Shown: positions 5,493 to 56,606 of the stretch, in pieces
Position numbering within the stretch: position 1 is the stretch's first letter
How the letters are laid out: the number at the start of each line of letters is the position of its first letter
IMG/VR virus record: IMGVR_UViG_3300011113_000491
Location: 59,466 to 123,465 of that record
DNA length: 64,000 nt
Reading direction: 5' to 3' (one strand)
Origin: a virus
Position numbers and translations under genes: made by a program
Notes under the pieces: generated by a model
What the model was told of the DNA's origin: nothing
What the model saw: the letters and a program-made list of their open reading frames with translations, nothing else
The model's database searches: none

Positions 5493-5496
5493 GTTC

Positions 5497-6778: not shown

Positions 6779-6800
6779 ACCCCATATTTATAATTTTTTT

Positions 6801-7215: not shown

Positions 7216-7374
7216 AGAACTTATAAGGGGGGTAGGGGGGGTAGGGGTTATAGTGAGCCTCGCTAGCGCACTATAGGGGTGGGACCCCATTTTCTAATAT
7301 CACTGTTGTGTGACGCGAGCTCGGCGTGACGCGAACCCCCACGAAACCCCTACGATTCCCTGCACAAACGAAAC

Positions 7375-7408
7375 AACCCCCGCACCACTCTCACATGGTA
7401 CGGGGGTC
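7375..7408 (-). terminator. Terminator-like hairpin ending the GC-rich operon
   Basis: ACCCCCGCACCA..TGGTACGGGGGT stem downstream of the 7430 stop. Confidence 0.55.
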
Positions 7409-7429
7409 GATGATGACGACGCGCTGTAG

Positions 7430-7825
7430 TTAGTCTGCGCCGTTCGGTGTCTCGTCGGAATCGTTGGGAATCGTTGGCGTTTCGGCACAGCGACGACAGA
7501 TGATCTTCCCTTGTGAATCATGCTTGGCGAAGGCCTTGCCGAATGCACCACCACAACGGGAGCAACGGCACAGATTCACCTTGGATTGATGGGGTTCTGG
7601 CGCACCATCGATCATGGCCTTCATCGTCTCCCAGTCGATTGGAATGACTTGAATGCCAGTGGATTCGAGCTCACGAGTCCATTCGTTCCAGTTGCGTTCC
7701 TCGAGCTGATCACGATTGAGGGGAAGGGCATTACGCTTGGATGGCCATGATTCGTTGATGCGCCGAAGCATGGCAATGAGAATCCACATGTCGGTGATGG
7801 GGGCAGGCAGTGTAGGCATACTCAT
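7430..7825 (-). CDS. Hypothetical protein with C-terminal Cys cluster
   Basis: ATG 7825 overlaps upstream TAA; CRCSRC..CRRC. Confidence 0.55.
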   Translation of the reverse strand: MSMPTLPAPITDMWILIAMLRRINESWPSKRNALPLNRDQLEERNWNEWTRELESTGIQVIPIDWETMKAMIDGAPEPHQSKVNLCRCSRCGGAFGKAFAKHDSQGKIICRRCAETPTIPNDSDETPNGAD

Positions 7826-8040
7826 TAGCGAGCCCTCCGATTGCAGCGTTCGGCACGGCGCAGGTTCTCGGTGTCCGTTGCCGAAACCATTACGATTTCG
7901 GGGGCGGTCTTGTGGTACCAGTCCATGAATCCGATGGGGGAACGAACGCGGGAGCACTTCACGCAGGTCGTAGTGGTGGGAATGGCATCGAGCCTGCCTT
8001 TCGGAATGTCGATGCCGCAGGTGTCGCAGGTCTTGGTCAT
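7825..8040 (-). CDS. DksA/TraR-type C4 zinc-finger protein
   Basis: MTKTCDTCGIDIPKGRLDAIPTTTTCVKC; AAGGA SD before ATG 8040. Confidence 0.75.
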   Translation of the reverse strand: MTKTCDTCGIDIPKGRLDAIPTTTTCVKCSRVRSPIGFMDWYHKTAPEIVMVSATDTENLRRAERCNRRAR

Positions 8041-8045
8041 TGTAG

Positions 8046-8156
8046 TTAGTCCTTGATTACAGAGAGAAAGAGAGAAACGGTCATCACGAACAGCGCAGCC
8101 CAGGCGCAGATGATGAATGACCACATGAGAAGAGCGAGAATCTGAAGAAGTTCCAT
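8046..8156 (-). CDS. 36-aa membrane peptide (not in the ORF track)
   Basis: MELLQILALLMWSFIICAWAALFVMTVSLFLSVIKD; AGGA upstream; fills the operon gap. Confidence 0.5.
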   Translation of the reverse strand: MELLQILALLMWSFIICAWAALFVMTVSLFLSVIKD

Positions 8157-8186
8157 GAGTGTTGAGTTTCCTAGTGAAGTTGAGAA

Positions 8187-9131
8187 TCAGACGCAATCGT
8201 TGTACTGCTCGGTGTGCCAGCGGCCTGCACGGGCCACACGGACATGGTTGCAGACATAGTGCCAACCGAAGTCGATGCAGACGGTGTGCCAACGGTTGCC
8301 GAAGCGCCACCAGCCGACATTGCCGTAGTGGAGGTCACCACCACCACGAATGAGCCCATGCTTACGCATCGTGGCGCCCTTGGGAATCGGGCGAAGCTCG
8401 CCGTATTCCATCTTATCGATGGCATTCACGGTGATGGAGTTGTCCCGAGGCGATCCACGCAGGTCGAGGTGGCGCAGGGCCTTCACCCAGCCTTGCATTT
8501 GCATACTGAACCCTGCCCACTCATCGCGGTCGTTGCCGTCGCGTTCGATCTCATCCAGCATCATGCCGAAGTGAGTGCCGATCAGGCGAATGTCCTTGCC
8601 CGTCAACGAAGGAAGATCGGTGGGGCGAGGGACGAGCCGACCCCTGTAGTTGTCGATCTCACGCGCCATGTTGTCGTCGCCGTAGTAGGCCATCATGCAC
8701 TCCATCAGCGATCCCGAACCCGAAGCATCACGCTGACGGTCGGTCATAGTGATCGCCACGCCAGTCTGATAGCCCCACAGAACATCGAGGCGATTGCGAC
8801 TGGTGCCGGTGGGCTTACCGATGAGCTCGAAGCGCACCATACGATGCACAGGCGGGGCCAAACGGGCCTTGTACGCCTGACGCTGACGCCACCACGCAGC
8901 ATACGCATCCTGCGGGTCTTGACCAGTGAGCTTGATGCCGAACTGGTGCGGGTCACAGACCTTCGCATTGTTGTCGAAGTACTGCGCCTGGGCGCCGTTC
9001 GAGCTGTTCTTGAAGACGCGACGCCACATGGAGTTGGTGAGGAGGTAAACATCGACCATGCCGTAAACACGGTCACGGTACGAGCGAACGGGAGCGATAC
9101 GGGGAAACACCGACGAGAGACGAGAGAACAT
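8187..9131 (-). CDS. Protein kinase-like protein
   Basis: NGAQA loop, FGIKL, DLHYGNV catalytic loop, CIDFG. Confidence 0.7.
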   Translation of the reverse strand: MFSRLSSVFPRIAPVRSYRDRVYGMVDVYLLTNSMWRRVFKNSSNGAQAQYFDNNAKVCDPHQFGIKLTGQDPQDAYAAWWRQRQAYKARLAPPVHRMVRFELIGKPTGTSRNRLDVLWGYQTGVAITMTDRQRDASGSGSLMECMMAYYGDDNMAREIDNYRGRLVPRPTDLPSLTGKDIRLIGTHFGMMLDEIERDGNDRDEWAGFSMQMQGWVKALRHLDLRGSPRDNSITVNAIDKMEYGELRPIPKGATMRKHGLIRGGGDLHYGNVGWWRFGNRWHTVCIDFGWHYVCNHVRVARAGRWHTEQYNDCV

Positions 9132-9182
9132 GAGTGTGAGAGATCCTGTGTGAGAGAACGGGAAGAACGATGAAAGAGACGA

Positions 9183-9566
9183 TCAGACGGCGTAGAGCCA
9201 GCGGTTCTGGCCACGCCACGTATTGGCGCCGTCGATGTACTGGGTGATGGCATTGCGGACCACGATCAGGAAGTCCACCATGTCGGTGTCGGGTTCCAGC
9301 ACATATTCGGCGATCACATTGCGATCAGCGCCGCTGCGGGTGACATACCAAATCTGGTAGGTCTTGCCACCGCGGAAGATCGTGCCGCTGCATTCGAGCC
9401 AGCCCCACACATACGAACCAGCGCCTTGCAGGCGCACGGCGTATTCCATGTTGCGGACTTCCTTCGGAGTGGCGTTGATCACGACGCGGTCGGCGCCGCG
9501 GATCAGACAGGGGCGAAAGCCCTCGCGGGGCGCGGAAATAAGAATGGTTTCAAGAGTCATCATCAT
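9183..9566 (-). CDS. Hypothetical early protein (leaderless)
   Basis: ATG 9566 lies 7 nt after the -10 box. Confidence 0.6.
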   Translation of the reverse strand: MMMTLETILISAPREGFRPCLIRGADRVVINATPKEVRNMEYAVRLQGAGSYVWGWLECSGTIFRGGKTYQIWYVTRSGADRNVIAEYVLEPDTDMVDFLIVVRNAITQYIDGANTWRGQNRWLYAV

Positions 9567-9573
9567 GGGGGTC

Positions 9574-9602
9574 ATTCTACAGACCCCCCTCCCCCGTGTC
9601 AA
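9574..9602 (-). promoter_or_regulatory. sigma70-type promoter
   Basis: TTGACA-17-TAGAAT. Confidence 0.75.
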
Positions 9603-9971
9603 GCCGGCATAACCCCAGTCGGCACAAGGACTTACGGCATTTATGGGGATTTTCCCCGCGTGATAGTAACCAGTTATCGGACGTACTTTCCCCTCACCGT
9701 TGTCTTTTTACATCAAACGGCAACAGTGCCCAATCAAACCGTGATAGTACATTCAGATACTTGGTGTCGATTTGACAGTCTCAAATACGCTGCACCAAAT
9801 GAAACAGGGACTGCCCCTTGGAGGCAGCCCCTGAAAGTATTCACGGCACTTGATCTTCTAGAGCCAAGGTTAGAGAGAGCGCCGGCGACACTATGTGCCG
9901 CTTTCCCATCGTCTAGCGTGGGCGGGATAATTTGGTATTGTCACCCCCTGTTAGCACCGCAGAGTAGGCAC

Positions 9972-10178
9972 TTACGCCAAGCGGATGCCGCCAGTGCGCC
10001 CACGGACAAACATCACACGGGCGCCGAAATGCGCGACCAGAGATCGGCGGACATCATCAGACTTCATGCCGTATTGTGCGGCAAGGTCCTTGAGAGTCAC
10101 GCGCTGGCCTCCATTGACGGCGGTTTCGAAGGCAGCGAAGTCGATCTTGGTGCTATTGGGATTCATGGTAGTGGTCAT
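9972..10178 (-). CDS. Small HTH-like protein
   Basis: VTLKDLAAQYGMKSDDVRRSL; GAAAGGA SD. Confidence 0.6.
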   Translation of the reverse strand: MTTTMNPNSTKIDFAAFETAVNGGQRVTLKDLAAQYGMKSDDVRRSLVAHFGARVMFVRGRTGGIRLA

Positions 10179-10202
10179 ATTGTTCCTTTCTTGAACACAC
10201 AT

Positions 10203-10231
10203 AGTATAGAACAGAGAGAGGTATAAGTCAA
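10203..10231 (-). promoter_or_regulatory. sigma70-type promoter
   Basis: TTGACT-17-TATACT. Confidence 0.75.
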
Positions 10232-10501
10232 GAGAGTAGCAGCGTATTTGTTGAAACGGCAGCACATTTCTGAGTGACTCAGTTTCCCTGGATCGGCATT
10301 AGAGATCTCACGGCATATCACAGCCTCATGGCAAAGTGCCTGTGAGAAGTGGTGGGCACTGGCTTAGACTGCTCAAACGGCAAAGCCTTCTCAACACCCC
10401 TCAAAGCCCCCTCTATTTTCCCTCATTTCGTCTACACGCCCCACACTCCCCCATCCATCAACACTCCTCCCCACCCCATTCAATATACCCTCTAGAAACA
10501 G

Positions 10502-10533
10502 AAAACCCCATTGGCGTGAAACCAATGGGGTTT
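10502..10533 (-). terminator. Intrinsic terminator
   Basis: AAAACCCCATTGG-loop-CCAATGGGGTTT. Confidence 0.75.
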
Positions 10534-10556
10534 GTATACGATTCTGTGCTGTGTGT

Positions 10557-12170
10557 TCAGTCCTGCTCGTAGTGTTCTGCTATACCTCTTTCTCTCTTTC
10601 GAGCCTGTGAAGCTGCGCGCCGGGCAGCAATGTAACCGGTTTCTGCCTCGGCCTTCAGACCTCGCTCCCTTCTGCTGACTCCGTATTCCTTGGTATTGGC
10701 GGCATCGATCTTGGAGTACATCAGACCTATAGCTTTAGTCGGCAACCCAAGGCGTTCGGCTGTTGTGTATCTTATGTCAGGAACCCCATCCGGGCCGATA
10801 ACATCGCGTTCGCGAGGCGTGAGTCCGCCGCGCCCAAAGCGCCGGCCGCGCCACCACTCATCGCGCTTTACCCTATATTGGTGATCTCTGGTGTCTGGCG
10901 TGCCTTGTTTCCTCGCTCTCGCCGCTGCCAAATCTACGAGGCTCGCTGGAATCCCTGCGGCGTGACCTTCCCGTGCAGTTCTTTGTGCAAGAGTCCCGGC
11001 GACTTTGGATCTGTCTAGTTTCTCATCTAGTCTCTGCTTGTAGTGGTCTTTCAAGGTCTCCTCTAGTCTACGGCGTGGCTTGAAGAATGGAGGTTTTTTC
11101 GCCGCTTCAGCACCAGGCGCGAGCTTCGGCACTTGTTGGGCCGATCTTGCTACATTCTGTAGTCCTTGATATGCTGACTGGACACTCGCAGAGGCTCGTT
11201 GCCCCTCCTCTTGTGCTTTGTGGAGGTCAAACTGACCTCCGACGCGGTCGCCCGCGTTGCTCACGGCGAGCGTGGTAGCGAGGCCAAGCGCCGCTACCGC
11301 TCTCGGCGATATGTGATGGCCGTGCAGCGTATCGGTATCGCGTGGATTCAATCCGGTTTTCCGGCCTCGGCCGTCCGTCCGTACATAGGGTACATACTCG
11401 TCCGCTTTCTTGTCGATGGCACCACTGATCCGACCGACCGCTGTTCTTATCTTGTCTGTTATTCTTCCTTCATTCATATGAGGATCTTTTAGTATCTTTG
11501 GTTTTGGTTTATGTGCTTCTAGACTCCGTTTGTACTTCTCTGAATCCTTTGGTCCGCTATGCACGGTTGGATCAAATGGCGGCTTCTTCGGACCGGTATG
11601 TACGGTTGGGTCTGGTTCACCCTTCTCTGGCATCTTCATCTCATTCATCATTTCTCGTAGTGTGTTCTCTAGACTCATTTCATCTCTCCTTTGTTTATTA
11701 TTTATACTTCTATCGATCTGTCGTAGTTCTTGCTTCTTGTCCATTGCTGCTTTGTTGACGACATTTGGTGTCAACAATCCACGACCCGTGAGTGCCATCG
11801 TACCAGCCAGAACCCCTGCGGCGATTCGTTCTAGTGATGCCCTGACTGCATCTGATCTCTTGAGTCGGGCGGACCTTTCTTGTCTGTAGGTTTGAAGCCA
11901 TTGCGTATCCCGTGGATTGCTGGTCTCTGTTTTCTTCCACCGACCGCGATGGCCTGGTGTTTCTGATCCATCAGGCATGATGCCTTTGATGATGGGGTTT
12001 GTGGTCTCTCCCCTTCTCCCACCAAACCTCTCGACCGTCTTATCCCAGGCTCTACCAAAGGCGCGTTTGTTTCTAGCAAACCTCATGTCTAGAATCGACT
12101 GTCGTTTTTGTGATCTCCGCAGAGAGTCTAGGATTCCTTCATTCAGTCTCTGCTTGTAGTGTTCTTTCAT
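10557..12170 (-). CDS. Large basic modular protein, probable processed head polyprotein
   Basis: MKEHYKQRLNE recurs internally as LKDHYKQRLDE; further LRE/MNE sites; tandem DPTVH(T/S)GPK. Confidence 0.65.
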   Translation of the reverse strand: MKEHYKQRLNEGILDSLRRSQKRQSILDMRFARNKRAFGRAWDKTVERFGGRRGETTNPIIKGIMPDGSETPGHRGRWKKTETSNPRDTQWLQTYRQERSARLKRSDAVRASLERIAAGVLAGTMALTGRGLLTPNVVNKAAMDKKQELRQIDRSINNKQRRDEMSLENTLREMMNEMKMPEKGEPDPTVHTGPKKPPFDPTVHSGPKDSEKYKRSLEAHKPKPKILKDPHMNEGRITDKIRTAVGRISGAIDKKADEYVPYVRTDGRGRKTGLNPRDTDTLHGHHISPRAVAALGLATTLAVSNAGDRVGGQFDLHKAQEEGQRASASVQSAYQGLQNVARSAQQVPKLAPGAEAAKKPPFFKPRRRLEETLKDHYKQRLDEKLDRSKVAGTLAQRTAREGHAAGIPASLVDLAAARARKQGTPDTRDHQYRVKRDEWWRGRRFGRGGLTPRERDVIGPDGVPDIRYTTAERLGLPTKAIGLMYSKIDAANTKEYGVSRRERGLKAEAETGYIAARRAASQARKRERGIAEHYEQD

Positions 12171-12241
12171 AGCAACAGCATTCTCCAGTCATATGTATGC
12201 CTGCGAACACACCGACGCGCGTGATAGTACAGCGTGGGTAC

Positions 12242-12268
12242 AAAGAAACCCCGCGCATGGCGGGGTTC
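12242..12268 (-). terminator. Intrinsic terminator
   Basis: AACCCCGC-GCATG-GCGGGGTT with an adjacent A-tract on the plus strand. Confidence 0.65.
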
Positions 12269-12300
12269 GTTGCGAGTTGAGATGTCATCCGATGGGCGTC

Positions 12301-12864
12301 CTAGTCCACCCGCAGGACTACGGATGGATCCATCCGCAGGGTCTGCATGAGCTCCGTGACAAGGAACCCGCCGGGCCCGAATCCCTTCTGTGCCTCATTC
12401 ACCGAGTCATACCACACTACTGCGTCGTTGATGATGAGCCATTGCCAGATGAATCGTCCTAGTTCTAGGGACGGCGTGATCGGTGAGCTAGGCTTCATAA
12501 TCAGGATCGGTTGTTCTGCCCCATAGCGTACAGGTACTCGGTCACACCCAGGCCGTGCCATGTACACGGAGTATGAGCTCGCGGCCGCAGAATCCGTTGG
12601 AACCCATGTCACGCATACACAGTTCTCCGGGATCAGGGAGAACTTATACAAACATGGGCGCGAGTTCCAACGAAACCAAAAGTTCCCGATTGAATCCGAA
12701 CCATACCCAGGCGGATTGAACATACTGGGGCGATTGCCGTTCAAACGAACTCCAGTCCAACGACACCCGAGCTTGTCCAGTCCAATCGACGCCAGCATCT
12801 TCGTGTCCCCCGCGACAACCGCATCCACGATCATCTCATCCGAGAACGATTCAAGTGAAGTCAC
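12301..12864 (-). CDS. Hypothetical protein
   Basis: GTG start overlapping upstream TGA; GGGAGG SD. Confidence 0.6.
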   Translation of the reverse strand: MTSLESFSDEMIVDAVVAGDTKMLASIGLDKLGCRWTGVRLNGNRPSMFNPPGYGSDSIGNFWFRWNSRPCLYKFSLIPENCVCVTWVPTDSAAASSYSVYMARPGCDRVPVRYGAEQPILIMKPSSPITPSLELGRFIWQWLIINDAVVWYDSVNEAQKGFGPGGFLVTELMQTLRMDPSVVLRVD

Positions 12865-13298
12865 ACCGAGCCTCCCATCGAACGGATGCGGGACTCAAGC
12901 ACGGCGACCTTGGACTCAAGGTCAGCGATCTTCTTGGTCATCGCATCCGCACTGGCCGCACAGGCGTTGGCAAACTTGGTTGCCGACTCCAAGTCCATGT
13001 TGAGCGAGTCCACACCGGCAAGCAGGGACAGGGCATCCTCGCCGTCTTGGAAGTACCCTGCCTTGCGAAGGACATCGATCTCCCCCTTGGCCTTCATCAT
13101 CTCGTTCAGGTTCTTGAGGTCGAGGCGGATGTCGGGACGAACGGTCTTGGCATCCACGGCATCGATCTCGTCGTTGAACACCTCGTCCAACGATTCCTCC
13201 GTGGGGAACAGGAGGAGGGCGCCTTCGTTGGGGGTGATGGTTTCGTAGGTCTGTCCGTCAGAGAACACGATGATTGCGATGGTTTCGTTGTTGGTCAT
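12861..13298 (-). CDS. Hypothetical protein with C-terminal coiled coil
   Basis: KKIADLESKVAVLESRI; AAGG SD. Confidence 0.65.
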   Translation of the reverse strand: MTNNETIAIIVFSDGQTYETITPNEGALLLFPTEESLDEVFNDEIDAVDAKTVRPDIRLDLKNLNEMMKAKGEIDVLRKAGYFQDGEDALSLLAGVDSLNMDLESATKFANACAASADAMTKKIADLESKVAVLESRIRSMGGSV

Positions 13299-13335
13299 GT
13301 TGTACCTTGTGTTGGGGGTGAAAGAGGAAGAAGAA

Positions 13336-14643
13336 TCAGGCGTTCATTGCGTAGTTCGACACACTCACCGAACTCGGCATCGGCGTGGTCGTGGGAGGAG
13401 GGCCAGGGATGAAGTGACCGTTACTCGCCACATTGCTGATGTACTGCGGATCGATGACGATGGTACGAGTCTCAAGCAACTTGGTCGCCTGCGTAGCCCG
13501 CTGGGACCACTCGACACGCGCAGTAGCAGAACTGTACACAATCGAAGCGTTCAGCAACCGAAGCGCCTTCTTGTAGTCAGAGTCCATCCTCATCTGCGGG
13601 CCACCGGTCTCACGCGGCCGGCGGTGTTCGCCTCGGCGCCGCATAGCAGGAAGCGCACACCCGTAGTTGTTGCGCGACGGGTTGCCGCACAGTTCCACCG
13701 AACGAACCTTGACGAGATCTCCGGGAACGCCAGACATCTGAATCTGTGGGATGAACACATGGACGCGAAGGCCGATGTCACCTGCGGCAGTCGCAGATGC
13801 GTACCTGCAACGCTCATCGTCCAGCGCCGAGTCCCCGGCGGTGAAGAAGCTCTGCTGAACACCAGCAAGCTCGCGCGTCACCAACACATGGGCGGTCATG
13901 CCCGATGCGTGTGCCAGTTCAGACTGATCGAAGCAGTAGGTCATTGCACTGGCGATCAGGAAGTCGTAGTTATGCACGAAACTGTCGGGGCACATGACCT
14001 TGGACCAGTCCTTCTCGGTGAAGTCGTTGGGCAGGGCCTCAAGTTCCCTACGGTTGGGATTCAGTTCAAAGTCGATGACCTGGAGGTTGTTGAGACTGCG
14101 GATCACACTGCTCATGTCCGCGCGAAGGCCAGGAGTCCACGACCAACGACCGTGTGCCGGAGCGAGGTTCCATCGTGCGCCGATGGACTTGAAGTAGTTG
14201 TTCATTTCCTCGTCGTACCCACAGGTCTTGAGCACCAAGGTGGGCATTCCCTCCTGCGGAAACCGATTCAACTCGCTCCAGGCGGTGTAGTCGTTGACGA
14301 CGATGCCGCTCACGAGGCCGTCATTGTACAGAGACATCTGCACATCCTTGGCGAGCTTGTCCCACTTGGAACGGAGGATGACGAAGGTTCCGAGTTCTTC
14401 CATGAACGATGCACCATGAGCCTTCACGCGCTCACGCAGCTTCTTTGACTCGCGGGTGCGGAAGGGGACATGGATCGTGACGGCGACCGGACGCTCGTAG
14501 AACTTCCTTTCGGAGATGGGCTTGTCCGAGTCGCTGATGGCGAGGTTGAGTGCTTCCAGGCCTGCAACGCTTCCATGAACTGAAGCGGCAACGCCGAGGG
14601 TTTGGTAGACTGACGAGAGTTCGATTTGATTGAAGATGACCAT
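13336..14643 (-). CDS. Hypothetical protein
   Basis: 435-aa ORF co-oriented with the operon; GC-ending codons. Confidence 0.65.
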   Translation of the reverse strand: MVIFNQIELSSVYQTLGVAASVHGSVAGLEALNLAISDSDKPISERKFYERPVAVTIHVPFRTRESKKLRERVKAHGASFMEELGTFVILRSKWDKLAKDVQMSLYNDGLVSGIVVNDYTAWSELNRFPQEGMPTLVLKTCGYDEEMNNYFKSIGARWNLAPAHGRWSWTPGLRADMSSVIRSLNNLQVIDFELNPNRRELEALPNDFTEKDWSKVMCPDSFVHNYDFLIASAMTYCFDQSELAHASGMTAHVLVTRELAGVQQSFFTAGDSALDDERCRYASATAAGDIGLRVHVFIPQIQMSGVPGDLVKVRSVELCGNPSRNNYGCALPAMRRRGEHRRPRETGGPQMRMDSDYKKALRLLNASIVYSSATARVEWSQRATQATKLLETRTIVIDPQYISNVASNGHFIPGPPPTTTPMPSSVSVSNYAMNA

Positions 14644-14733
14644 GAGATGATTCCTGAAAGAGTGCGGACGATTGAAACGGGAAAGGTGAGTAACGGCGTT
14701 AGCCGATACCCACCGAGTAGGAGGTGTGATGGA

Positions 14734-15201
14734 TCAGAGGCCGGACAGGGCGCCGGGGCCGGACAACTTGGCAAGGCGGCGGAGGAAGTCGGCCTTACGC
14801 TTGCCCTTGAGCAGCACTGCCACGCTGACATAGTTGCTGCCCTGCTGACCCTGCTCCGTGTAATCCACGGCAGCGTCACCGCGCGTAGCGAAGATGCCGC
14901 GGAAGGTGGGCATCTTGTTCATCTGCTTGCGGAGTTCGCGGATGAAACGCTCGTCCGTGTAGATGAGCCCGTGACGCTGAATGTCCCAGTCCTTCTTGGT
15001 GAAGTACACGCGGAAGGCGACATACAGATCGTCGTTGTGGTAGTCGGCAAGGAGCTCCCCATCGTTCGGGAAGATGTAGTCCAGTTCGATGCGACGGATG
15101 GTGATGGTGCGGATCGACTCCGACCACAACCCCTTGCCGTCGGTCGTGCAGACGATGGGGGTCTTGAGAGGGAACGAGATACGAGTAGTAGTGTTGGTCA
15201 T
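14734..15201 (-). CDS. Hypothetical phage protein
   Basis: LIYTD..F..EL and VDYTEQGQQG..YVS, a pattern I recall from phage hypotheticals. Confidence 0.65.
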   Translation of the reverse strand: MTNTTTRISFPLKTPIVCTTDGKGLWSESIRTITIRRIELDYIFPNDGELLADYHNDDLYVAFRVYFTKKDWDIQRHGLIYTDERFIRELRKQMNKMPTFRGIFATRGDAAVDYTEQGQQGSNYVSVAVLLKGKRKADFLRRLAKLSGPGALSGL

Positions 15202-15249
15202 GTTACTGATGATCCTTGTGTTGAGTGTGCGAGAGAAAGAAACGAACGA

Positions 15250-16458
15250 TCAGAACGGCGCCTTGGTGCGATCAACCGGGGCGGCCGCCGGAGCCGGAGT
15301 GGGTTCCGGTTCCACGATCTTGGACCACGCGGAGTAGAACGATTCCTGCGTGGACTGATCGAAGCGGGCGAGTGAGAGGCGGATCGCCTTGTCCTTGTCA
15401 CCGAACACCGAGAACGCCTTGACGATGTTGAGCAGACGACGGGTCGAAACCACCTCATCGCAGGCACCTTCCTTGAAGGTGGCGCGGAGCATATCCGCCC
15501 ACTTGCACAGGTAACCCGCGAAGTCCTCATCGACCTTGCCGTACTTCTTCATGGCACGGACGAGGATGCGCTTCTCGGTCGCCACAGGGGCGTAGTCCTG
15601 CTCGTAGGTGTAGTCGAAGCGGTCGAGCATTGCCTCGTTCATCACGCGAGTACCGACGAAGCGGCCGTCATCGCTACCCTTGCCCTTGGTGTTGGCGGTG
15701 GCGAAGATGGTGAACCCGGTAGCGGGCGAAACCCATTGGTTGATCTTCTTGAGGAACACACCCTTACCCTCAAGCACCGACTGGAGGCACATGAGCTTGT
15801 CGCTGCCGAGGTCGATCTCGTCAAGGAGCAGCACGGCACCACGCTTCATCGCGGACACGACAGCACCATCGTGCCACACCATGTCGCCGTTGACGAGGCG
15901 GAAACCACCGAACAGATCATCCTCATCGGTCTCCGCAACGATGTTGACACGGAAGCACTCGCGTCCGAGCTTCGCGCAGACCTGTTCGATCATCGTTGTC
16001 TTGCCGTTGCCGGACAGACCCGTGACGAACACAGGCGAGAAGATGTTCGCCTTGATGATCGTGGAGATGTCATCGAAGTGACCCCACGGGACATACTCGG
16101 CGTTCGTGGGCGGGATCAGAGTGGCGCGATCACCACCGGTCATGCCCAGGACCTCGGCGTTGAACACCGCAGGGGCGGCCGCGGCGATCTTGACACTCGG
16201 CGCCGGAGCGGCAACCGGAGCAACCGGAGCAGCAGCAGGCGTCGCCTTGGTCGTCGTCGCCGGAGCGTTGACGATCTCGGGGACATGGAACAGGCCACGA
16301 CCGGCGTGGCGAGCGGGATCCTTGACGATCCACGCGGGCGGGAAGTTGTTGCCCACCAGCTGTGCAGCCTGGAGGAGCTGCTGGCGCGTCACGGGAGTGG
16401 CGCGCGTAATGGTGGCGAGGGCGGTGAAGTACGCGGTCTGCTTGGTAGTATTAGGCAT
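15250..16458 (-). CDS. MoxR-family AAA+ ATPase (CobS-like of T4-like phages)
   Basis: GLSGNGKT Walker A, LLLDEID Walker B, ATANTKGKG, NEAMLDRF, STRRL; ATG 16458 after its promoter. Confidence 0.9.
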   Translation of the reverse strand: MPNTTKQTAYFTALATITRATPVTRQQLLQAAQLVGNNFPPAWIVKDPARHAGRGLFHVPEIVNAPATTTKATPAAAPVAPVAAPAPSVKIAAAAPAVFNAEVLGMTGGDRATLIPPTNAEYVPWGHFDDISTIIKANIFSPVFVTGLSGNGKTTMIEQVCAKLGRECFRVNIVAETDEDDLFGGFRLVNGDMVWHDGAVVSAMKRGAVLLLDEIDLGSDKLMCLQSVLEGKGVFLKKINQWVSPATGFTIFATANTKGKGSDDGRFVGTRVMNEAMLDRFDYTYEQDYAPVATEKRILVRAMKKYGKVDEDFAGYLCKWADMLRATFKEGACDEVVSTRRLLNIVKAFSVFGDKDKAIRLSLARFDQSTQESFYSAWSKIVEPEPTPAPAAAPVDRTKAPF

Positions 16459-16465
16459 ACCGTCC

Positions 16466-16767
16466 AGGCTACCAGCTTCTGGTCCACGGCACAAGCCAGG
16501 AAATGGAAATATTTCTAAGTCCTTGTCCCATAAGGACTTACATAAACCCTTGTAAATAAAGGACTTATGGGGGGTATTATCGGACGCCGTTCCCTACTGC
16601 CGGGGGCGGGGGCCCATATTATCGGACATCCACCAGAGAGGAGGGGGCGTCCGATAAGCGTGATAGTATCCAGTTATGGGACTTTCGGTCGTAAGTCCTT
16701 ATGCCACAACGATTTACGATAAATCTAGGGTTTCCCTATTGCGCGGGGACCCCCGATATGGTAGCCT
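16466..16767. promoter_or_regulatory. Divergent promoter pair with operator-like repeats
   Basis: Minus: TTGTGC-17-TAGCCT-7-ATG; plus: TTGCGC-17-TAGCCT-7-ATG; three TAAGTCCTT-N7-AAGGACTTA-type palindromes; three TTATCGGAC. Confidence 0.75.
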
Positions 16768-16774
16768 GTCCGGT

Positions 16775-19228
16775 ATGCTTACTGCCAGTACTACGCCCGT
16801 CGTTCAAACCATTCGCCATACTTCAAAGGATCTGCTTGCGCGTATCCTCGCCACGGAGAATCTGACCGTGCGCCACGATCCCTCCGCGCAGACCGCCAGC
16901 ATGGATGTCGTCAATCGCGTTCTCACGCTCCCCGTGTGGACTGACATGACCAACGAGGTCTACGATATGCTGATCGGTCACGAGGTCGGCCATGCCCTGT
17001 TCACTCCGCACACGGAAGCAGACAAGCGCGTGTCTGGCCCGTGGTGTGCCGCTGCCGAGGAGATCGCTGGTATCAACCAAGAAACTCCGAGGTGCCAGAT
17101 GCTCCTCAACATCGTGGAGGACGCCCGCATCGAACGCATGATGAAGCAGAAGTTCCCCGGTATGCGCCGCGACTTCTTCAAGGCCTACGAGTACATGAAG
17201 GCCAATGACTTCTTCGGCATCAACGCCAAGACCGCGGATGAACTGAACGCTCTGCGTTTCGCTGACCGCATCAACCTGCACTACAAGCTCGGCACCATCG
17301 GTGATACGGGTATCTACTTCAGCGACACCGAGCGCGAGTACCTCAAGCGCATCGATGCCGCCAAGACCTTCGATGACATCAAGGACATCGTGCGCGACCT
17401 GTGGAACACCAAGGCGTACAACGAACCGGGCCAGAAGCAGGATGCCGGCGACGGTACTGGTGACGGCGACATCGGTGACATGGACAACGACGGCAACGAC
17501 GCTGGCCAGCAGCAGCAGGGCAAGTCCAACAGCGGACAGACCAACAGCGGCCAGTCGCCCAGTAAGGGCAACGATTCGCAACCGGGTCAGGATCAGTCCA
17601 ATGGTGCATCGCAGCAGCAGGGCGACCAGAAGTCCAACCAGTCCGGTGCCGGTCGTCACGGCGACCACAGTTCTGTTGCGGGTTCGACGCAGCAGGCGAT
17701 GCAGGATCACCTGTCGTCGCGTACCAAGACCAGCGGAAGCTACCAGTACATGACTCTGCCCGAGCCTGATCTGTCCAAGATCATCATGGGTTGGCGCGAC
17801 ATCGCCAAGGAGTTCGTGCAGTTCGACTCCAAGGTTTCGGGTGCCTACGATATGCCCGCGATCCGTCGCGTGGCGACCGAGATGTCGAGCAAGTTCATGT
17901 CGGACAGCAAGCCCATCGTGTCGCTCATGGTGAAGGAGTTTGAGATGCGTAAGGCCGCCGATGCGTCGGCGCGTGTTCGTGTCGCCACCACCGGCGTCCT
18001 CGACGGCGTGCGTGTCTGTAACTACCGGATCACCGACGACATCTTCCGTCGTCACGCGACCGTGCAGGCTGGCAAGAACCACGGGTTCGTCATCTTCATC
18101 GACTGGTCGGGTTCCATGTCGCCCGTGATCGGGCCCGTGTTCAACCAGGCGCTTCAGGTGATGATGTTCTGCCGTCGCGTCGGTATCCCGTTCGATGTGT
18201 ATGCGTTCAGCAGCGCGACTGCTCCGGGCGTCGAGCGTCGTGACCAGTGGAAGACTACTGATGGCAACAACATCATGTTCAACAGTTTCATGCTCATGCA
18301 CCTGTTCTCATCGTCCATGTCGTCGGCAGCGTTCAACAACCAGGTCGCCCTCATGTGGAGCGTTGCCCATCAGCGCGGTCTTTCGACCGAGTGTGAGCGT
18401 CGCGGTATGCGTATCGGTTGGAGTGCGCCGATTCCTGACTTCATGCACATGGGTTCGACTCCGCTTGACGAGTCCATCGCCTGTGCAATGAAGATCGTGC
18501 CGGAGTTCCGCACCCGCAATCGTGTGCAGATCGTCAACACGGTGTTCCTCACCGACGGCGCTACTACGAGTCCGTGGGGTGGTGGCAACGCATACGATTC
18601 AATCTGCGGAGACAAGGCGACGAGCAACATGGAGTTCCTGACCGTCGGTCACAAGAACTACGCCGCTGCACCGTCATCGACTGCCGCAATGCTGCGCGCG
18701 CTGCGTGACCAGTGCGATACTCGCGTGATCGGGTTCTTCCTTGTCGAAGCACCCAACAAGGTGTATGCCGAAGGCAAGTTCTCGCCTGCCAAGCCCAATC
18801 GCTACAGCGGCGACATCGACTCGTCGTACTCGTATGTCGATGCCACGGGCCGCGAGTGTCCGTCCAAGGTTGGTTACTTGACGCAGGGTCTCATTCCACT
18901 CGACCGTCCCGCGATCAAGTCGCATTGGAACTCCCGTCCGATTCTGTCTGCGGATGACTGCAAGCGGGCCAATGAAGAGGTCGCCCGGTTCGCAGAGGAG
19001 GACTACTGCATCGCCGTGCCGACTTCGTTCGTCGGTGCCGGGTACGACGAGATGTACATGATCCGTGCCGGTCTCGATGTTGACAACACGGATCACCTCG
19101 GTGCGCTCAACGCCAACACCGCCACGGTGGCACAGGTGAAGCGCGCCCTGCTCAAGTCCGCCCGTGGCAAGCTCAAGTCCCGTAAGATGTTCACCCGTTT
19201 CGTTTCCCTCATCTCGACCCAGGCCTAA
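16775..19228 (+). CDS. Metallopeptidase-like plus VWA domain protein (CobT-like MoxR partner)
   Basis: HEVGH, NIVEDARIE, Q/S/G/D-rich linker, DWSGS MIDAS, GSTPL, LTDG. Confidence 0.88.
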   Translation: MLTASTTPVVQTIRHTSKDLLARILATENLTVRHDPSAQTASMDVVNRVLTLPVWTDMTNEVYDMLIGHEVGHALFTPHTEADKRVSGPWCAAAEEIAGINQETPRCQMLLNIVEDARIERMMKQKFPGMRRDFFKAYEYMKANDFFGINAKTADELNALRFADRINLHYKLGTIGDTGIYFSDTEREYLKRIDAAKTFDDIKDIVRDLWNTKAYNEPGQKQDAGDGTGDGDIGDMDNDGNDAGQQQQGKSNSGQTNSGQSPSKGNDSQPGQDQSNGASQQQGDQKSNQSGAGRHGDHSSVAGSTQQAMQDHLSSRTKTSGSYQYMTLPEPDLSKIIMGWRDIAKEFVQFDSKVSGAYDMPAIRRVATEMSSKFMSDSKPIVSLMVKEFEMRKAADASARVRVATTGVLDGVRVCNYRITDDIFRRHATVQAGKNHGFVIFIDWSGSMSPVIGPVFNQALQVMMFCRRVGIPFDVYAFSSATAPGVERRDQWKTTDGNNIMFNSFMLMHLFSSSMSSAAFNNQVALMWSVAHQRGLSTECERRGMRIGWSAPIPDFMHMGSTPLDESIACAMKIVPEFRTRNRVQIVNTVFLTDGATTSPWGGGNAYDSICGDKATSNMEFLTVGHKNYAAAPSSTAAMLRALRDQCDTRVIGFFLVEAPNKVYAEGKFSPAKPNRYSGDIDSSYSYVDATGRECPSKVGYLTQGLIPLDRPAIKSHWNSRPILSADDCKRANEEVARFAEEDYCIAVPTSFVGAGYDEMYMIRAGLDVDNTDHLGALNANTATVAQVKRALLKSARGKLKSRKMFTRFVSLISTQA

Positions 19229-19242
19229 TAGGAGAACCTACA

Positions 19243-20115
19243 ATGACTACCAAGACATGGCCATCATCATTGGACGCACACATCGAAATGAACTTTGAGT
19301 TCAGGTACAACCACGGCGCAGGACTCGCGTTCCATGATGGACTCAATCCTGCGTTGGCGGACATCATCACTACAAGAGAGATGTTCCACCTCGCACAAGA
19401 TTGGGGATGCCAGAAGTACGCGCAGATCAAGAAGTACATCAAGGGATATGACTCGTTCAGTCTCCTCATGCACCCGGACTCGTCTGTGAAGATGTTCGTC
19501 AAGTCCCTCACCGTCAGCTACACCACGATGAACACCGAGCGGATTCTGTTCTTCTATGACTCAAAGGGAGTCAACGACGGCGTTGCAATGCTCTGGCTTC
19601 CTGGTCACAACAGTCCGGCGCCCATGAGTCCTGCTCGTTTCTCGACCCACGCCGAAACGGTCAACGGACTTGGAGACAGAGGGTACTACCGCCAATACGA
19701 AGAAGGATTCAAGCAGAATCCGATTGCGATGGCGAAGCACATGGTCTGCGAGATCATTCGGATCAAGCAGGTTCACCGATGCGCGCCGGGTAGTATGGCA
19801 GGCAGCAACGAACAGGACTTCCGTCTGATGCCGCTCGAGCTCTTCGTCGGTAGCAAAGAACTGATCCGAGATGTGTGGGATTCTCTCGTTGGATACTCCC
19901 CGCGGCCGGTCGAGATGAAGGAAGAAGGATCAGCAATCTGCACGAACGGTCTGAAGTTCGGTGACTACATGGAAGAATGCGGTGACATGATGATTACGCA
20001 CTACAACAACCACATTCTTGAATCGTTCGCAGACAACCTCCGCATCAACGGCATCAATATGTTCCCGATTGTTAGCGGTCATTCAAACAAGGGTATCGTG
20101 ACGCACCCGGTTTGA
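19243..20115 (+). CDS. Hypothetical protein
   Basis: AGGAG SD; directly downstream of the VWA gene. Confidence 0.7.
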   Translation: MTTKTWPSSLDAHIEMNFEFRYNHGAGLAFHDGLNPALADIITTREMFHLAQDWGCQKYAQIKKYIKGYDSFSLLMHPDSSVKMFVKSLTVSYTTMNTERILFFYDSKGVNDGVAMLWLPGHNSPAPMSPARFSTHAETVNGLGDRGYYRQYEEGFKQNPIAMAKHMVCEIIRIKQVHRCAPGSMAGSNEQDFRLMPLELFVGSKELIRDVWDSLVGYSPRPVEMKEEGSAICTNGLKFGDYMEECGDMMITHYNNHILESFADNLRINGINMFPIVSGHSNKGIVTHPV

Positions 20116-20159
20116 ACTAACACGAACCCAGTCAGACGCCCAAGGTGGGCAGTAGCATG

Positions 20160-20192
20160 GGGCGGATCGTTCTACGATCCGTCCCTTTTTTT
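20160..20192 (+). terminator. Intrinsic terminator
   Basis: GGGCGGATCG-TTCTA-CGATCCGTCCC then a T-tract. Confidence 0.8.
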
Positions 20193-20358
20193 ATCGTGAT
20201 AGTATCGCGTGGTATTCGCCGCATGACCACGGGAAAGATCGGCAGGATATGGATATATGCCATCGTGGCAGGATATGAAACACCGATGGCATAGTGGTCA
20301 TACTGCCATATGCCAATGCAATCTGGCATTATTTCTTTCAGAAATATGTGAAATATGC

Positions 20359-20387
20359 TTGTGAAATGTTTCACGATCCGGTAGACT
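20359..20387 (+). promoter_or_regulatory. sigma70-type promoter (leaderless)
   Basis: TTGTGA-17-TAGACT-6-ATG 20394. Confidence 0.6.
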
Positions 20388-20393
20388 ACACGC

Positions 20394-20666
20394 ATGGCAA
20401 GACCTACAGACCCGTTCGATCCCGCGTCTATGGACGCATACATCAACCCGATTCTCAATCGCGCGGCAATCGATGTCGTCTATTTGAACGACATCGCATC
20501 CAAAGCGGAGCTCATGCTTGAGTTGTTCATACAGCACGGCCTGCTCGACATTGAAGTGACCGGCAACGGTGACTTCGCCTACCGTGTGTCCGACATTTGG
20601 AAGAAAGAACTCGCCGCTGAAGGACACGATCTCTCTCGCATTCCCCTCTCGCACCTCTCTTACTGA
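20394..20666 (+). CDS. Hypothetical protein
   Basis: ORF directly after the promoter. Confidence 0.65.
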   Translation: MARPTDPFDPASMDAYINPILNRAAIDVVYLNDIASKAELMLELFIQHGLLDIEVTGNGDFAYRVSDIWKKELAAEGHDLSRIPLSHLSY

Positions 20667-20676
20667 AATACGAAAT

Positions 20677-21045
20677 ATGCCATTCGACCCCTACAACAAC
20701 GAACACACCGACAGCAGCCTCTACTTCGATGACTTCGGAGACACCGACGACCGCATGGAAATCCTGCGCGAGCTCGATGAGGACTACGACCCCATGAGCG
20801 ACCCCGATCCCTTCGATGACGATGAAGAATGGTCAGAGGAGGACGACGACCGCGGCGCCGTTCGTGAGGACGAGGATGAGAACTACGACGACCTGGATGA
20901 CGACGACCTTGAGGATGACGACCACGAGGAACTGCCGCATGAGGACGACGACGACTTTGATGACTGCTTCAACTGCGACGGCAGCATCTCCGATAAGGGA
21001 TTCGCCCTTCTCGGTGACATGGATCGCAGGGGTCTCTTTGTCTGA
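20677..21045 (+). CDS. Extremely acidic small protein
   Basis: D/E-dominated sequence; ATG 20677 after the upstream stop. Confidence 0.65.
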   Translation: MPFDPYNNEHTDSSLYFDDFGDTDDRMEILRELDEDYDPMSDPDPFDDDEEWSEEDDDRGAVREDEDENYDDLDDDDLEDDDHEELPHEDDDDFDDCFNCDGSISDKGFALLGDMDRRGLFV

Positions 21046-21055
21046 AAGGACACCA

Positions 21056-21541
21056 ATGACCACCACTACTGTTTCTGTTCCCCAAGTTCATCCGCCTGCC
21101 TATTCGTACTGCACGGCCAAGGTGATTCCCCCCACAACCAAATCCATCACGACCGGCATGATGATGTTCGACAAGTCGTATATGCTTTCTGTGCAGAGCA
21201 AGTTCATCCATATGTGGATGCGCGATATGCCAGCAAAGTACCCGCAGCACAAGACGCCGCATATGCCCTCAAAGGCGTGTGAGTTCGCGCAGGCCTGCTA
21301 TATGCTTGCGACTGGATATGGCGAACACGCCATGCCGGCATTCAATGGGTACAGTCGTGACTTCCTGATGATGGTTTCCAATCAGTTGGGATATGCGTAT
21401 ATCCCGGCATGGATCGTCAAGGACAAGTCGCGCCGCCTTGATCGTTCGATGTACATGGTTCCCGAAGTTTCGATTTATGCCGTCGCATATCTCTCCACCC
21501 TCCCGACTCCAACCACCAACGAGGTTACCACCAATGCGTGA
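21056..21541 (+). CDS. Hypothetical protein sharing a motif with the AAA+ N-terminus
   Basis: GAAAGGA SD; PAWIVKD..R..R..VPEV. Confidence 0.65.
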   Translation: MTTTTVSVPQVHPPAYSYCTAKVIPPTTKSITTGMMMFDKSYMLSVQSKFIHMWMRDMPAKYPQHKTPHMPSKACEFAQACYMLATGYGEHAMPAFNGYSRDFLMMVSNQLGYAYIPAWIVKDKSRRLDRSMYMVPEVSIYAVAYLSTLPTPTTNEVTTNA

Positions 21542-21842
21542 GAACACCATCACCGTGATTTTTGACGACGCCGACCGCCGACAGATGGAGTGGCAACCCA
21601 ATCTGACAGAGCATGAGTTTCCCCTGTGGTGGCAGAGTCTCACCGATACCGACTTCATTCGGTTCTACTTCAACCCGTTCGCCCTGCCAGGCACGGTCAA
21701 GGTGATGAAGAATCGGCAGGAAGTGAAGCCGTATTACTACTGCTACTTCGATGAGATGCAGAACTCATACATCAGCGTGGGCCAGAGGACGATCCCGTAT
21801 CGATACGGCGATCTGAACTGGAAGAGGCACTGGCCCGCGTAA
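21534..21842 (+). CDS. Hypothetical protein
   Basis: ATG 21534 overlapping the upstream stop; GAGG SD. Confidence 0.6.
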   Translation: MRENTITVIFDDADRRQMEWQPNLTEHEFPLWWQSLTDTDFIRFYFNPFALPGTVKVMKNRQEVKPYYYCYFDEMQNSYISVGQRTIPYRYGDLNWKRHWPA

Positions 21843-21869
21843 CACAATCTCCGTGCCATGGGACGCAAC

Positions 21870-21906
21870 GACCCGACAGGTTTCATCGCCTGTCGGGTCT
21901 TTTTTT
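21870..21906 (+). terminator. Intrinsic terminator
   Basis: GACCCGACAGG-loop-CCTGTCGGGTC then a T-tract. Confidence 0.85.
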
Positions 21907-22060
21907 GACGCGTGATAGTATCAGTATAGAAATATGCTAGTTTATGAAATATGCGATTTTAGGAAATATGCAAATCATAATCCAACAAATCTAGCAACAA
22001 GGATTCCAACGCAGAACGAAATAAGCGAAATGAGAATCTTGTGAATCTTCAAGTCGTTCT

Positions 22061-22585: not shown

Positions 22586-22617
22586 CGGTCTAACCGATGG
22601 ATCACTTCGGGGTGGGG

Positions 22618-23349: not shown

Positions 23350-23435
23350 AAGAATATGTATAAAAGAATAACAAAATAGACATTTTGCATCGGCATACCC
23401 CCTGTGGTATAATCTACATATCAAGGAGGTGCTAT

Positions 23436-54985: not shown

Positions 54986-54987
54986 AA

Positions 54988-55060
54988 CTCTTCGGACTGG
55001 GATCGAACCAGTGACATTGGAGTTAACAGCTCCACGCTCTACCATCTGAGCTACCGAAGA
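54988..55060 (-). tRNA. tRNA-Asn(GTT)
   Basis: Acceptor TCTTCGG/CCGAAGA, anticodon loop CTGTTAA, T-loop TTCGATC; no encoded CCA. Confidence 0.92.
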
Positions 55061-55067
55061 AAAATAA

Positions 55068-56424: not shown

Positions 56425-56444
56425 AGTAAAAATGTTATATTAAA

Positions 56445-56516
56445 AGAGGATGACGGGAGTTGAACCCGCAACATCTACCTTGGAAGGGTAGCACTCTGCC
56501 ATTGAGTTACATCCTC
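56445..56516 (-). tRNA. tRNA-Gly(TCC)
   Basis: Acceptor GAGGATG/CATCCTC, anticodon loop CTTCCAA, T-loop TTCAACT. Confidence 0.9.
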
Positions 56517-56521
56517 AGCAA

Positions 56522-56606
56522 TAGGACCGGCGGGAATCGAACCCGCATGGTTTTTGAAACCGAGGGATTTTAAGTCCCTTGCGTCTGCCTGTTCCGCCAC
56601 AGTCCC
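56522..56606 (-). tRNA. tRNA-Leu(TAA)
   Basis: Acceptor GGGACTG/CGGTCCT, anticodon loop CTTAAAA, long variable arm, T-loop TTCGATT. Confidence 0.92.

Follow-up and report, generated by a model that had tools for sequence, protein, structure and literature searches.

Cowe and Sharp are said to have described, in 1991, codon classes of phage T4 that follow the time of expression, together with the tRNA genes of that phage, and Borges et al. reportedly found stop-codon-recoded phages whose early genes are host-readable and whose late genes need phage suppressor tRNAs. Here we analyze a window of 64,000 nt, positions 59,466 to 123,465 and the right half of the 123,465-bp virus contig IMGVR_UViG_3300011113_000491 (G000), in which a block of ~14.7 kb (7226..21899; positions are those of the window unless stated otherwise) anchored by a cobS/cobT-like gene pair has a G+C content (GC) of 56.4% within an AT-rich T4-like genome. 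As in T4, there are two codon regimes, phage tRNAs that would serve later genes and probably earlier genes that look more host-like. Here the contrast is larger (GC at third codon positions, GC3, 0.70 versus 0.25; 20 points of total GC), the timing is read from sequence signals, and the difference sits in one terminator-bounded block, reaches amino-acid use and the non-coding DNA as well, and is maintained across deep clades. The recoded phages share the proposed logic, in which the first genes fit a naive host and the late genes use phage translation parts; here, composition and codon choice alone differ and the code is unchanged.

Early and late genes differ in codon use in about half of 14 phages, according to the accessible text of that survey (Mioduser et al. 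2017, PMC5683454). Low-GC T4-like cyanomyoviruses of GC-rich Synechococcus bring their own tRNAs for AT-rich codons (Limor-Waisberg et al. 2011, PMC3152331). They share with G000 an AT-rich T4-like genome, tRNAs whose anticodons start with T, and early transcription thought to be carried out by unmodified host polymerase; the accessible part of that paper treats the genome as one composition and does not mention a GC-rich block, and the cultured cyanomyoviruses that we checked have a small bump at cobS. AT-rich phage DNA is also prone to xenogeneic silencing, and LUZ24 gp4 counters MvaT (accessible text of PMC8501957). In those systems, as proposed here, DNA that is AT-rich relative to the host is repressible and early genes must act earlier; the escape proposed here would lie in the early genes' own composition. 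Early/late codon classes and compensating tRNAs are therefore known, whereas a conserved GC-rich block anchored by cobS/cobT in T4-like phages was not found described in the literature that we could cover, which leaves out most subscription journals.

Sliding 1-kb GC lies at ~33-44% across most of the window and at 51-62% between ~7.2 and 22 kb. A sequence-only reading of this DNA had placed composition switches near 7.3 and 21.9 kb (7270 and 21920); a maximum-likelihood single change point per side puts them at 7226 and 21899, and the four G+C counts per 60 nt that the reading had made by hand (38 at 17401, 25 at 49021, 15 at 28381 and 9 at 42901) are exact. Block GC is 0.564, compared with 0.364 in the remainder of the contig. 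The 160 other 14.7-kb windows of the contig have a mean GC of 0.360 (standard deviation 0.023) and a maximum of 0.398, and no second GC-rich block of this kind is found elsewhere in its 123,465 bp. The left edge is abrupt, with GC climbing to 0.56 from 0.33 over ~150 nt; past the right edge, GC stays intermediate for ~1 kb, due to amino-acid content rather than third positions.

The block consists of two divergent operons that run from the cobS/cobT-like pair outward to intrinsic terminators at both edges. The cobS-like gene (15250..16458, minus strand) encodes a MoxR-type AAA+ ATPase of 402 amino acids with a GC3 of 0.80, and the cobT-like gene (16775..19228, plus strand) a protein of 817 amino acids with an N-terminal HExxH domain and a VWA/MIDAS domain. 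The control region between them (16459..16774) contains two mirror-image promoters, GTCCGATAA boxes and the palindrome TAAGTCCTT-N7-AAGGACTTA. Each gene is preceded by TTG(T/C)GC-17-TGGTAGCCT-7-ATG (TTGTGC for cobS), a sigma70-type promoter with an extended -10 from which both mRNAs would be leaderless. The same layout is present in G001, a syntenic 156.7-kb viral contig of 36% GC, and in L096-L099 and, with a -10 box that fits less closely, in L016, L019 and L078; the closer relatives also have the GTCCGATAA boxes, and most of these the palindrome. Five strong intrinsic terminators lie in the G000 block, and the first and last of them mark its edges: one with a 15-bp stem (7374..7409, minus strand, read from 7409 to 7374) closes the leftward arm ~150 nt inside the left edge, and the other (21870..21899, plus strand) stands exactly on the right edge. 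The G001 block has TTGACA-16-TATAAT promoters (12/12 and 11/12 positions matched), a strong terminator with a 14-bp stem at its far edge and a weak one at the other. The earlier claim that the GC-rich genes lie behind sigma70 promoters thus holds for the first genes of the block, and the arms close at intrinsic terminators.

The motif TATAAATA, which we take from T4 to be the late promoter, occurs at 21 sites in the contig. We counted it at 15 AT-rich genes, virion genes among them, with a mean GC3 of 0.24; it lies 5-35 nt upstream of the start in 13 of these and 67 and 71 nt upstream in the other two. No copy precedes the start of a block gene, and the sole copy in the block lies inside a cassette open reading frame (ORF) discussed below. 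Together, the promoter and terminator motifs suggest that the block genes are expressed first, or at least early.

The two parts of the genome differ at every codon position. GC at first, second and third positions (GC1, GC2 and GC3) is 0.574, 0.451 and 0.703 in block genes (4057 codons, including one misframed gene of 73 codons) and 0.446, 0.400 and 0.246 in the backbone (92 ORFs, 33,122 codons), as expected from the earlier statement that block genes prefer C/G-ending codons (0.70 versus 0.25). TTA makes up 0.01 of Leu codons in the block and 0.32 in the backbone, GGA 0.15 and 0.46 of Gly codons, and AAA 0.12 and 0.64 of Lys codons; the AGA share is 0.10 and 0.66 and the ATA share 0.06 and 0.40. 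Phage tRNA genes for Asn(gtt), Gly(tcc) and Leu(taa) are located at 54987..56606 on the minus strand, between the halves of a split DNA polymerase gene, and a Lys(ttt) gene and a transfer-messenger RNA (tmRNA) slightly upstream of the window. Three of the four tRNAs (Leu-taa, Lys-ttt and Gly-tcc) decode A-ending codons that the block avoids; Asn(gtt) decodes both AAC and AAT. The sequence-only reading was correct that the Leu(TAA) and Gly(TCC) tRNAs read codons frequent in the AT-rich genes (0.32 and 0.46 of the backbone's Leu and Gly codons).

Within the backbone, GC3 forms a gradient: 0.52 for gp32, 0.37-0.41 for the polymerase, helicase, UvsX and reductase genes, and 0.12-0.33 for virion genes. 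The tiers are shared with G001, with values (G000/G001) of 0.6-0.86 for the block, 0.52/0.41 for gp32, ~0.4/0.3 for replication genes and 0.12-0.33 for virion genes. Orthologue GC3 correlates between the two phages at r=0.85 over 76 pairs, a few of which are shadow ORFs, and at r=0.69 for the backbone only (71 pairs, p=3e-11). With proteins only 27-83% identical, synonymous sites are presumably saturated between the two.

The GC-rich feature anchored by cobS and cobT is widespread and graded among relatives. G001 matches G000 at 122 ORFs (27-83% identity) and has its own block of 52-61% GC at 131-144.5 kb of its contig, between homologues of the window genes 5739-6326 and 23385-24053. Its cobS is 69% and its cobT 41% identical to those of G000, the accessory block genes differ between the two phages, and the two blocks are alike in dinucleotide signature (delta* 72). 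We collected cobS relatives from 80 viral-contig and 80 metagenome-contig loci; 161 loci had a match, and for 75 of them the record extends far enough to give ≥1.5 kb of flanking sequence at a distance of >4 kb; this set counts the window and some duplicated records. In all 75, the GC of cobS exceeds that of the lower distal flank by at least 0.03, and in 22 by at least 0.12; in none does a distal flank reach a GC of 0.55. Examples include L099, where GC rises from 28-40% to 56-65%, L076/L078 (33-42% to 55-62% over ~10 kb), L016 (31-40% to 50-58%) and marine TARA contigs such as L114. The rise is limited to cobT and cobS (GC3 0.57-0.62) in L032, L040 and L042, where the neighbors are at once back at backbone values.

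The GC-rich state also follows the phylogeny of the gene. When the label GC3 ≥0.60 is mapped onto a quick maximum-likelihood tree built from 78 cobS sequences, it needs 9 changes compared with 22.2 in shuffles, and 0 of 500 shuffles was as low. The cobS clade of this phage has a GC3 of 0.70-0.87 in 10/10 rows. Five of these rows include a distal flank, whose GC is 0.36-0.38 in three; for the remaining two, this window and L093, the values are 0.45 and 0.53 since their 'flank' falls inside the block. Pelagibacter phage HTVC008M, whose host we take to have ~30% GC, serves as a control and has no bump (GC3 0.19 for cobT, 0.22 for cobS and 0.19-0.29 for neighbors). P-SSM4 and S-SCSM1 have a small one, with a cobS GC3 of 0.38 versus 0.24-0.31 for most neighbors and up to 0.43 in S-SCSM1.

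Whether the composition is maintained or decaying was assessed by polarizing changes in a 1.95-kb alignment of G000, L092, L093 and L094. Changes private to G000 comprise 35 from G/C to A/T (S>W) and 36 from A/T to G/C (W>S), which corresponds to an equilibrium GC of ~0.59 and departs from the 72% S>W expected under decay to the backbone GC (p=5e-5, binomial). The younger tips L092 and L093 together have 32 S>W and 13 W>S changes (Fisher p=0.022 versus G000). The numbers are small, but they fit AT-biased mutation everywhere, followed in the block by a later filter that favors G/C.

We lean, with modest confidence, towards the explanation that a fixation bias linked to early and host-dependent expression preserves the composition of the block. 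The block module would be read first by unmodified host RNA polymerase and ribosomes, and this bias, most likely selection for being expressed by host machinery, would keep its host-like GC up against AT-biased mutation. Genes read later, chiefly those behind T4-type late promoters, would drift to AT-rich codons, and the phage tRNAs Leu-TAA, Lys-TTT and Gly-TCC would help to decode them. An early, host-dependent cause is favored because the edges are transcription-unit ends in two phages, the promoters are of host type and the tRNAs match the codon regimes. By the logic applied to the cyanomyoviruses in the accessible text of PMC3152331, the phage tRNAs suggest a host that is GC-richer than the phage.

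Several observations weigh against this explanation, or at least against a version of it in which tRNA matching does all the work. Non-ORF DNA has a GC of 0.517 in the block, partly raised by terminator stems, versus 0.362 in the backbone. Over 144 distinct sequences of cobS, GC3 rises together with GC1 (r=0.56), GC2 (r=0.64) and the share of Gly, Ala, Arg and Pro (GARP) residues (r=0.63), values that carry no phylogenetic correction. The dinucleotide signature of the block is at delta* 153 from the backbone, as distant as an unrelated genome would be and versus 31-59 among backbone segments, and CpG stands at 1.12 versus 0.63 (ranges 1.12-1.20 and 0.63-0.64). The sigma70-type leaderless promoters of both halves of the AT-rich DNA polymerase gene are just as good, yet GC3 there is only 0.39-0.41, so transcription by the host polymerase does not by itself make a gene GC-rich. 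Backbone GC3 is also higher for better-conserved proteins, a confounder of any link to timing, and the small cobS bump of cyanomyophages is equal on AT-rich (Prochlorococcus) and GC-rich (Synechococcus) hosts. L093 has a net loss of G/C in the 1.95-kb alignment (23:8, S>W:W>S). With L095 as outgroup over 3929 sites, G000 has 91 S>W and 76 W>S changes and L093 121 and 58; in this comparison S>W is inflated by homoplasy. L093 may be losing GC. Additionally, the nearest relatives of a GMP reductase/IMPDH-family gene at 712-1761 (minus strand) among species-representative genomes are Pelagibacteraceae at 58-59% identity, with other groups at 54-57%, a weak hint at an AT-rich Pelagibacteraceae host or origin of the gene; it is too weak to name a host from.

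Because non-coding DNA and amino-acid use shift as well, tRNA matching alone is insufficient, and it is probably only one component of the cause. The earlier inference that early genes fit host tRNAs and late genes lean on phage tRNAs is thus upheld in part: three of the four phage tRNAs suit the AT-rich regime, but the non-ORF shift (0.517 versus 0.362) and the correlation of GC3 with GARP residues (r=0.63) argue that such matching is not the whole explanation. The same shifts in non-coding DNA and amino-acid make-up point to some further advantage that GC-rich DNA or RNA would bring in its own right. Together with the dinucleotide signature and the promoters of the AT-rich polymerase genes, the non-ORF shift and the GC1, GC2 and GARP correlations argue that the pressure acts on nucleotides as such. 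Candidates for the filter are selection at the DNA level (escape from silencers of AT-rich DNA), selection at the RNA level and biased gene conversion. In its most far-reaching form, the proposal would be that many uncultured aquatic T4-like phages living in a GC-richer host keep a first-expressed, cobS/cobT-anchored module GC-rich at the DNA level, so that it escapes H-NS/MvaT/Lsr2-type silencing and spurious transcription and is read with host tRNAs, that its products open the AT-rich rest, and that composition itself is the early/late switch; in this full form we consider it quite unlikely.

A different origin of the pattern would be gene flux, in which a hyperplastic slot is repeatedly refilled by recombination from a GC-rich pool, for instance other phages or elements of a GC-rich host, and composition reflects where the genes came from. 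The alien dinucleotide signature without CpG depletion and the shift at all codon positions and in non-coding DNA are what such a history would leave. Most block genes are also orphans, with Pfam matches for 1/18 ORFs and PHROG matches for 2/18, and a 435-aa ORF that has only two homologues (92-95% identity) among 8000 scored candidates, no locus in viral contigs and no Atlas lead. The accessory genes are unlike between G000 and G001, one cassette is exchanged between populations, and L093 shows its net loss of G/C. However, cobS and cobT are the oldest and most shared genes of the block and yet have the highest GC3 (0.78-0.86), whereas amelioration predicts the lowest. The GC-rich state is common to whole deep cobS clades (9 versus 22.2 changes), the G000 branch looks compositionally stationary in the 1.95-kb alignment, and the edges match terminators in two phages. 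No donor genome is seen: no distal flank among the 75 loci reaches 0.55 GC, and the closest cobT homologues (57-96% identical) all come from metagenomes, none from NCBI genomes. Of the marks of a horizontal island, the block has the atypical composition and signature; family scans of its proteins found no integrase, transposase or homing enzyme families, and its edges have no tRNA and no att-like or flanking direct repeats. Nor is its presence patchy, as G001 and the whole clade have a block at the corresponding position. We judge flux unlikely, though not negligible, as the source of the composition.

A local neutral process independent of expression, either GC-biased gene conversion at a hotspot or a regional bias of mutation or repair, would also shift non-coding DNA and first and second codon positions. 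AT-biased young changes and balanced older ones are likewise expected from biased conversion, and there are recombination joints inside the block. Such a process does not, on the other hand, account for edges at transcription-unit ends, the right one exactly at a terminator, or for L032, L040 and L042, in which only cobT and cobS are raised. Gene-by-gene GC3 is conserved across the backbone and tracks functional class, for which a single hotspot is insufficient. We know of no documented case in phages, though we made no specific search, and hold a neutral origin to be decidedly improbable.

That an AT-rich phage and a GC-rich genome were joined into a chimera during assembly, as the abrupt change of composition as such and the lack of any match in a megablast of 7000-22500 against 50,697 phage records might suggest, has practically no chance of being true, given independent contigs that span the junctions, the equal layout in G001, L098, L099, L076/L078 and others, G001 being a syntenic relative with a GC-rich block of its own, and block genes of phage type (phrog_249, phrog_459). 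The contigs in question are Logan contigs of four runs from four studies, mapped to 3500-23499. X11 (record 1, 4847-9685), X4 (record 21, 5842-7694) and X13 (record 8, 7146-10603) span the left junction, X11 (record 6, 21029-22049 onward) and X13 (record 12, 21766-23499) the right one, and all three represent studies other than the likely source. Depth in X11 is flat across the left junction, at 66.9, 65.7 and 67.2 in three bins; contig depths for this phage in X11 and X13 are ~17-67x. The sequence-only reading, which had called for coverage across the junctions to be checked, was right that the block is not chimeric: there is no coverage break at 7226 in X11, and both junctions are spanned by contigs. 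Just beyond the right edge, 22049-23390 is strain-variable; in X11, 1332 other letters stand there within one contig.

If selection does hold a 20-point GC contrast while proteins diverge to 40-70% identity, composition would be a regulated trait of phage genes and not merely a passive record of mutation bias or origin. GC and k-mer methods for detecting foreign DNA, binning and host prediction would then split or misassign such genomes. The block would offer a natural test of what limits the first step of infection, be it host tRNAs, silencers or mRNA stability, and cobS and cobT, core genes of marine and lake myophages, would be singled out as probable first-acting genes.

The typical T4-like AAA+/VWA pair that the sequence-only reading had recognized is real. 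The cobS-like protein matches PF07728 (AAA_5, dynein-related; 3.3e-19), CbbQ_C (3.6e-4) and phrog_249 (2.4e-100). Its identification as the aerobic cobaltochelatase CobS was rejected, with 89.4 bits against a cut-off of 558.55 for the TIGR01650 equivalog. The cobT-like protein matches phrog_459 (2.9e-152), and H69-E70-H73 and D443-S445-S447-T562-D594 are invariant in an alignment of 21 family members. No VWA domain was detected by sequence, with Pfam matching 0/21 family members and a single-sequence PDB search giving none at E 0.01; the family profile against PDB gave only two matches near E 0.05, to unrelated proteins. An AlphaFold2 model (predicted local distance difference test, pLDDT, 70) does show a MIDAS/VWA fold, with Foldseek matches to the MDN1 MIDAS (3.3e-5), the NorD VWA, a domain from the NorD-NorQ complex (9.1e-5), and the Rea1 MIDAS (2.8e-4). 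The chaperone-like CobS/CobT, NorQ/NorD and MoxR-VWA pairs are alike in having an AAA_5 ATPase that adjoins a VWA/MIDAS protein, and the phage pair is homologous to the phrog_249 and phrog_459 phage genes. The two genes are divergent here, whereas in cultured relatives they stand in tandem inside the gp46-gp45 replication module. In HTVC008M (L175 9428-13464), the cobT-like gene and cobS follow each other between gp46 and gp45, and a phage ribosomal protein S21 comes next. One cyanophage record annotates the cobT-like gene as 'ribosome assembly protein' and another as 'midasin'. Both 'cobS' and 'peptidase' are listed as core genes of cyanomyophages and pelagimyophages in the accessible text of PMC7029224. 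A PADLOC scan of 19 ORFs for defence and counter-defence systems gave a single weak match (mad8, E 0.006, on cobS).

The leftward arm continues beyond cobS with four orphan ORFs (12301-12864, 12861-13298, 13336-14643 and 14734-15201; 12301..15201, minus strand), which have a GC3 of 0.64-0.84 and are absent from G001, followed by a strain-variable cassette and five further genes. The cassette ORF (10557..12170, minus strand) is open for 537 codons and encodes a basic, repetitive protein; the variable locus as a whole covers 10557-12292. It had been described earlier as an interleaved late-type ORF; the ORF exists, but at GC 0.52 and GC3 0.50 it is not of the AT-rich late type, and as a strain-variable cassette of intermediate GC it makes a weak argument against a chimera. 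Upstream of it are a terminator hairpin, an extended -10 box (TGTACTAT), a Shine-Dalgarno site and 12 codons (MKEHYKQRLNE). These leader elements are 90-93% conserved in L092-L094, after which the bodies in G000, L092, L093 and L094 are unrelated. The conserved motif recurs at 11023-11053 and 10563-10578, which makes three copies, and X11 contigs have deletion joints there, and contig joints show that the cassette is deleted or replaced in other populations. The arrangement is reminiscent of the polymorphic internal-protein locus of T4, with its conserved capsid-targeting leader ending in L-x-E. A structured RNA at 12135-12300 was considered and rejected, as the fold equals shuffles (z 0.05) and the region is made up of terminator, promoter and leader; Rfam has no match inside the GC-rich block.

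Further out on the minus strand, an intrinsic terminator (10503..10533) precedes a small ORF (9972..10265) that lies behind TTGACT-17-TATACT and is shared with the G001 block (57%). Another terminator (9805..9833, minus strand) is followed by an ORF at 9183..9602, whose true start is downstream of the promoter TTGACA-17-TAGAAT (9602-9574). Next are a 314-aa ORF (8187..9131) that is shared with the G001 block (37%) and gave no Atlas lead, a hydrophobic peptide of 36 aa that was read by eye (8046..8156), a C4 zinc-finger protein of the DksA/TraR type (7825..8040; 71 aa, GC3 0.76) and a 129-aa ORF of no family (7430..7819), all on the minus strand. The zinc-finger protein matches TIGR02419 at 1.3e-7, under the curated cut-off, and is 61% identical to an ORF that lies outside the block of G001; it could possibly bind RNA polymerase. 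The rightward arm holds, beyond cobT, a 290-aa ORF of no family (19243..20115, plus strand) and a few small ones. These include a 149-aa ORF shared with the G001 block (21393..21842, plus strand; 47%); the coding assignment of 20394-21541 is ambiguous. An intrinsic terminator at 20159..20185 (plus strand) is followed by a promoter-like box, CGTGATAGTAT, of which there are four plus-strand copies (9658-9682, 16658-16682, 20195-20206 and 21911-21922), two of them right after terminators. At 9.7 and 16.6 kb the copies are accompanied by GTCCGATAA boxes, and CGTGATAGTAT may represent a family of phage-specific early control sites.

The source of the contig is a distant, uncultured freshwater T4-like myophage. 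Backbone genes include those for a DnaB-like helicase, primase, UvsX, gp32, ribonucleotide reductase and thymidylate synthase, as well as terminase and, from a contractile tail, the sheath, tube and baseplate wedge proteins. No gp23 major capsid or gp20 portal gene was found among the ORFs scanned, which makes an incomplete contig likely; the completeness rating of G001 is 70%. The stretch 3000-12999 was found in 20 public runs from 12 studies, whose labels are those of viral, riverine, estuary, lake, wetland, aquatic and freshwater metagenomes; no RNA run was among the 22 listed. The family-B DNA polymerase gp43 is split into two ORFs (phrog_262 at 3.7e-163 and 1.4e-140) and is 47.5% identical to gp43 of the cyanomyophage Synechococcus phage S-SM2. 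About 3 kb separates its halves (52478-53593 and 56615-58084, minus strand), a gap that contains the three tRNA genes along with an endonuclease-like ORF and a phosphoesterase. A separate near-consensus sigma70-type promoter stands 6 nt ahead of the ATG of each half, and the gene is split in G001 also.

The tmRNA upstream of the window is of the one-piece type, at contig positions 54696-55062 (locus L172 14696-15062, minus strand), with an Rfam RF00023 score of 119 bits, a GC of 0.41 and a tag given by ARAGORN as ANTRAFAMAA. A weak tRNA-like Rfam match near it (L172 13553-13627, 36.9 bits) was not called by ARAGORN. Just left of the block, at 6784-7214, a 36-nt repeat ending in GGGACTGGGGGATCCTAA occurs in three copies (none of 100 shuffles gave a match), two of which adjoin the TATAAATA boxes of the genes 6323-6778 and 6836-7138.

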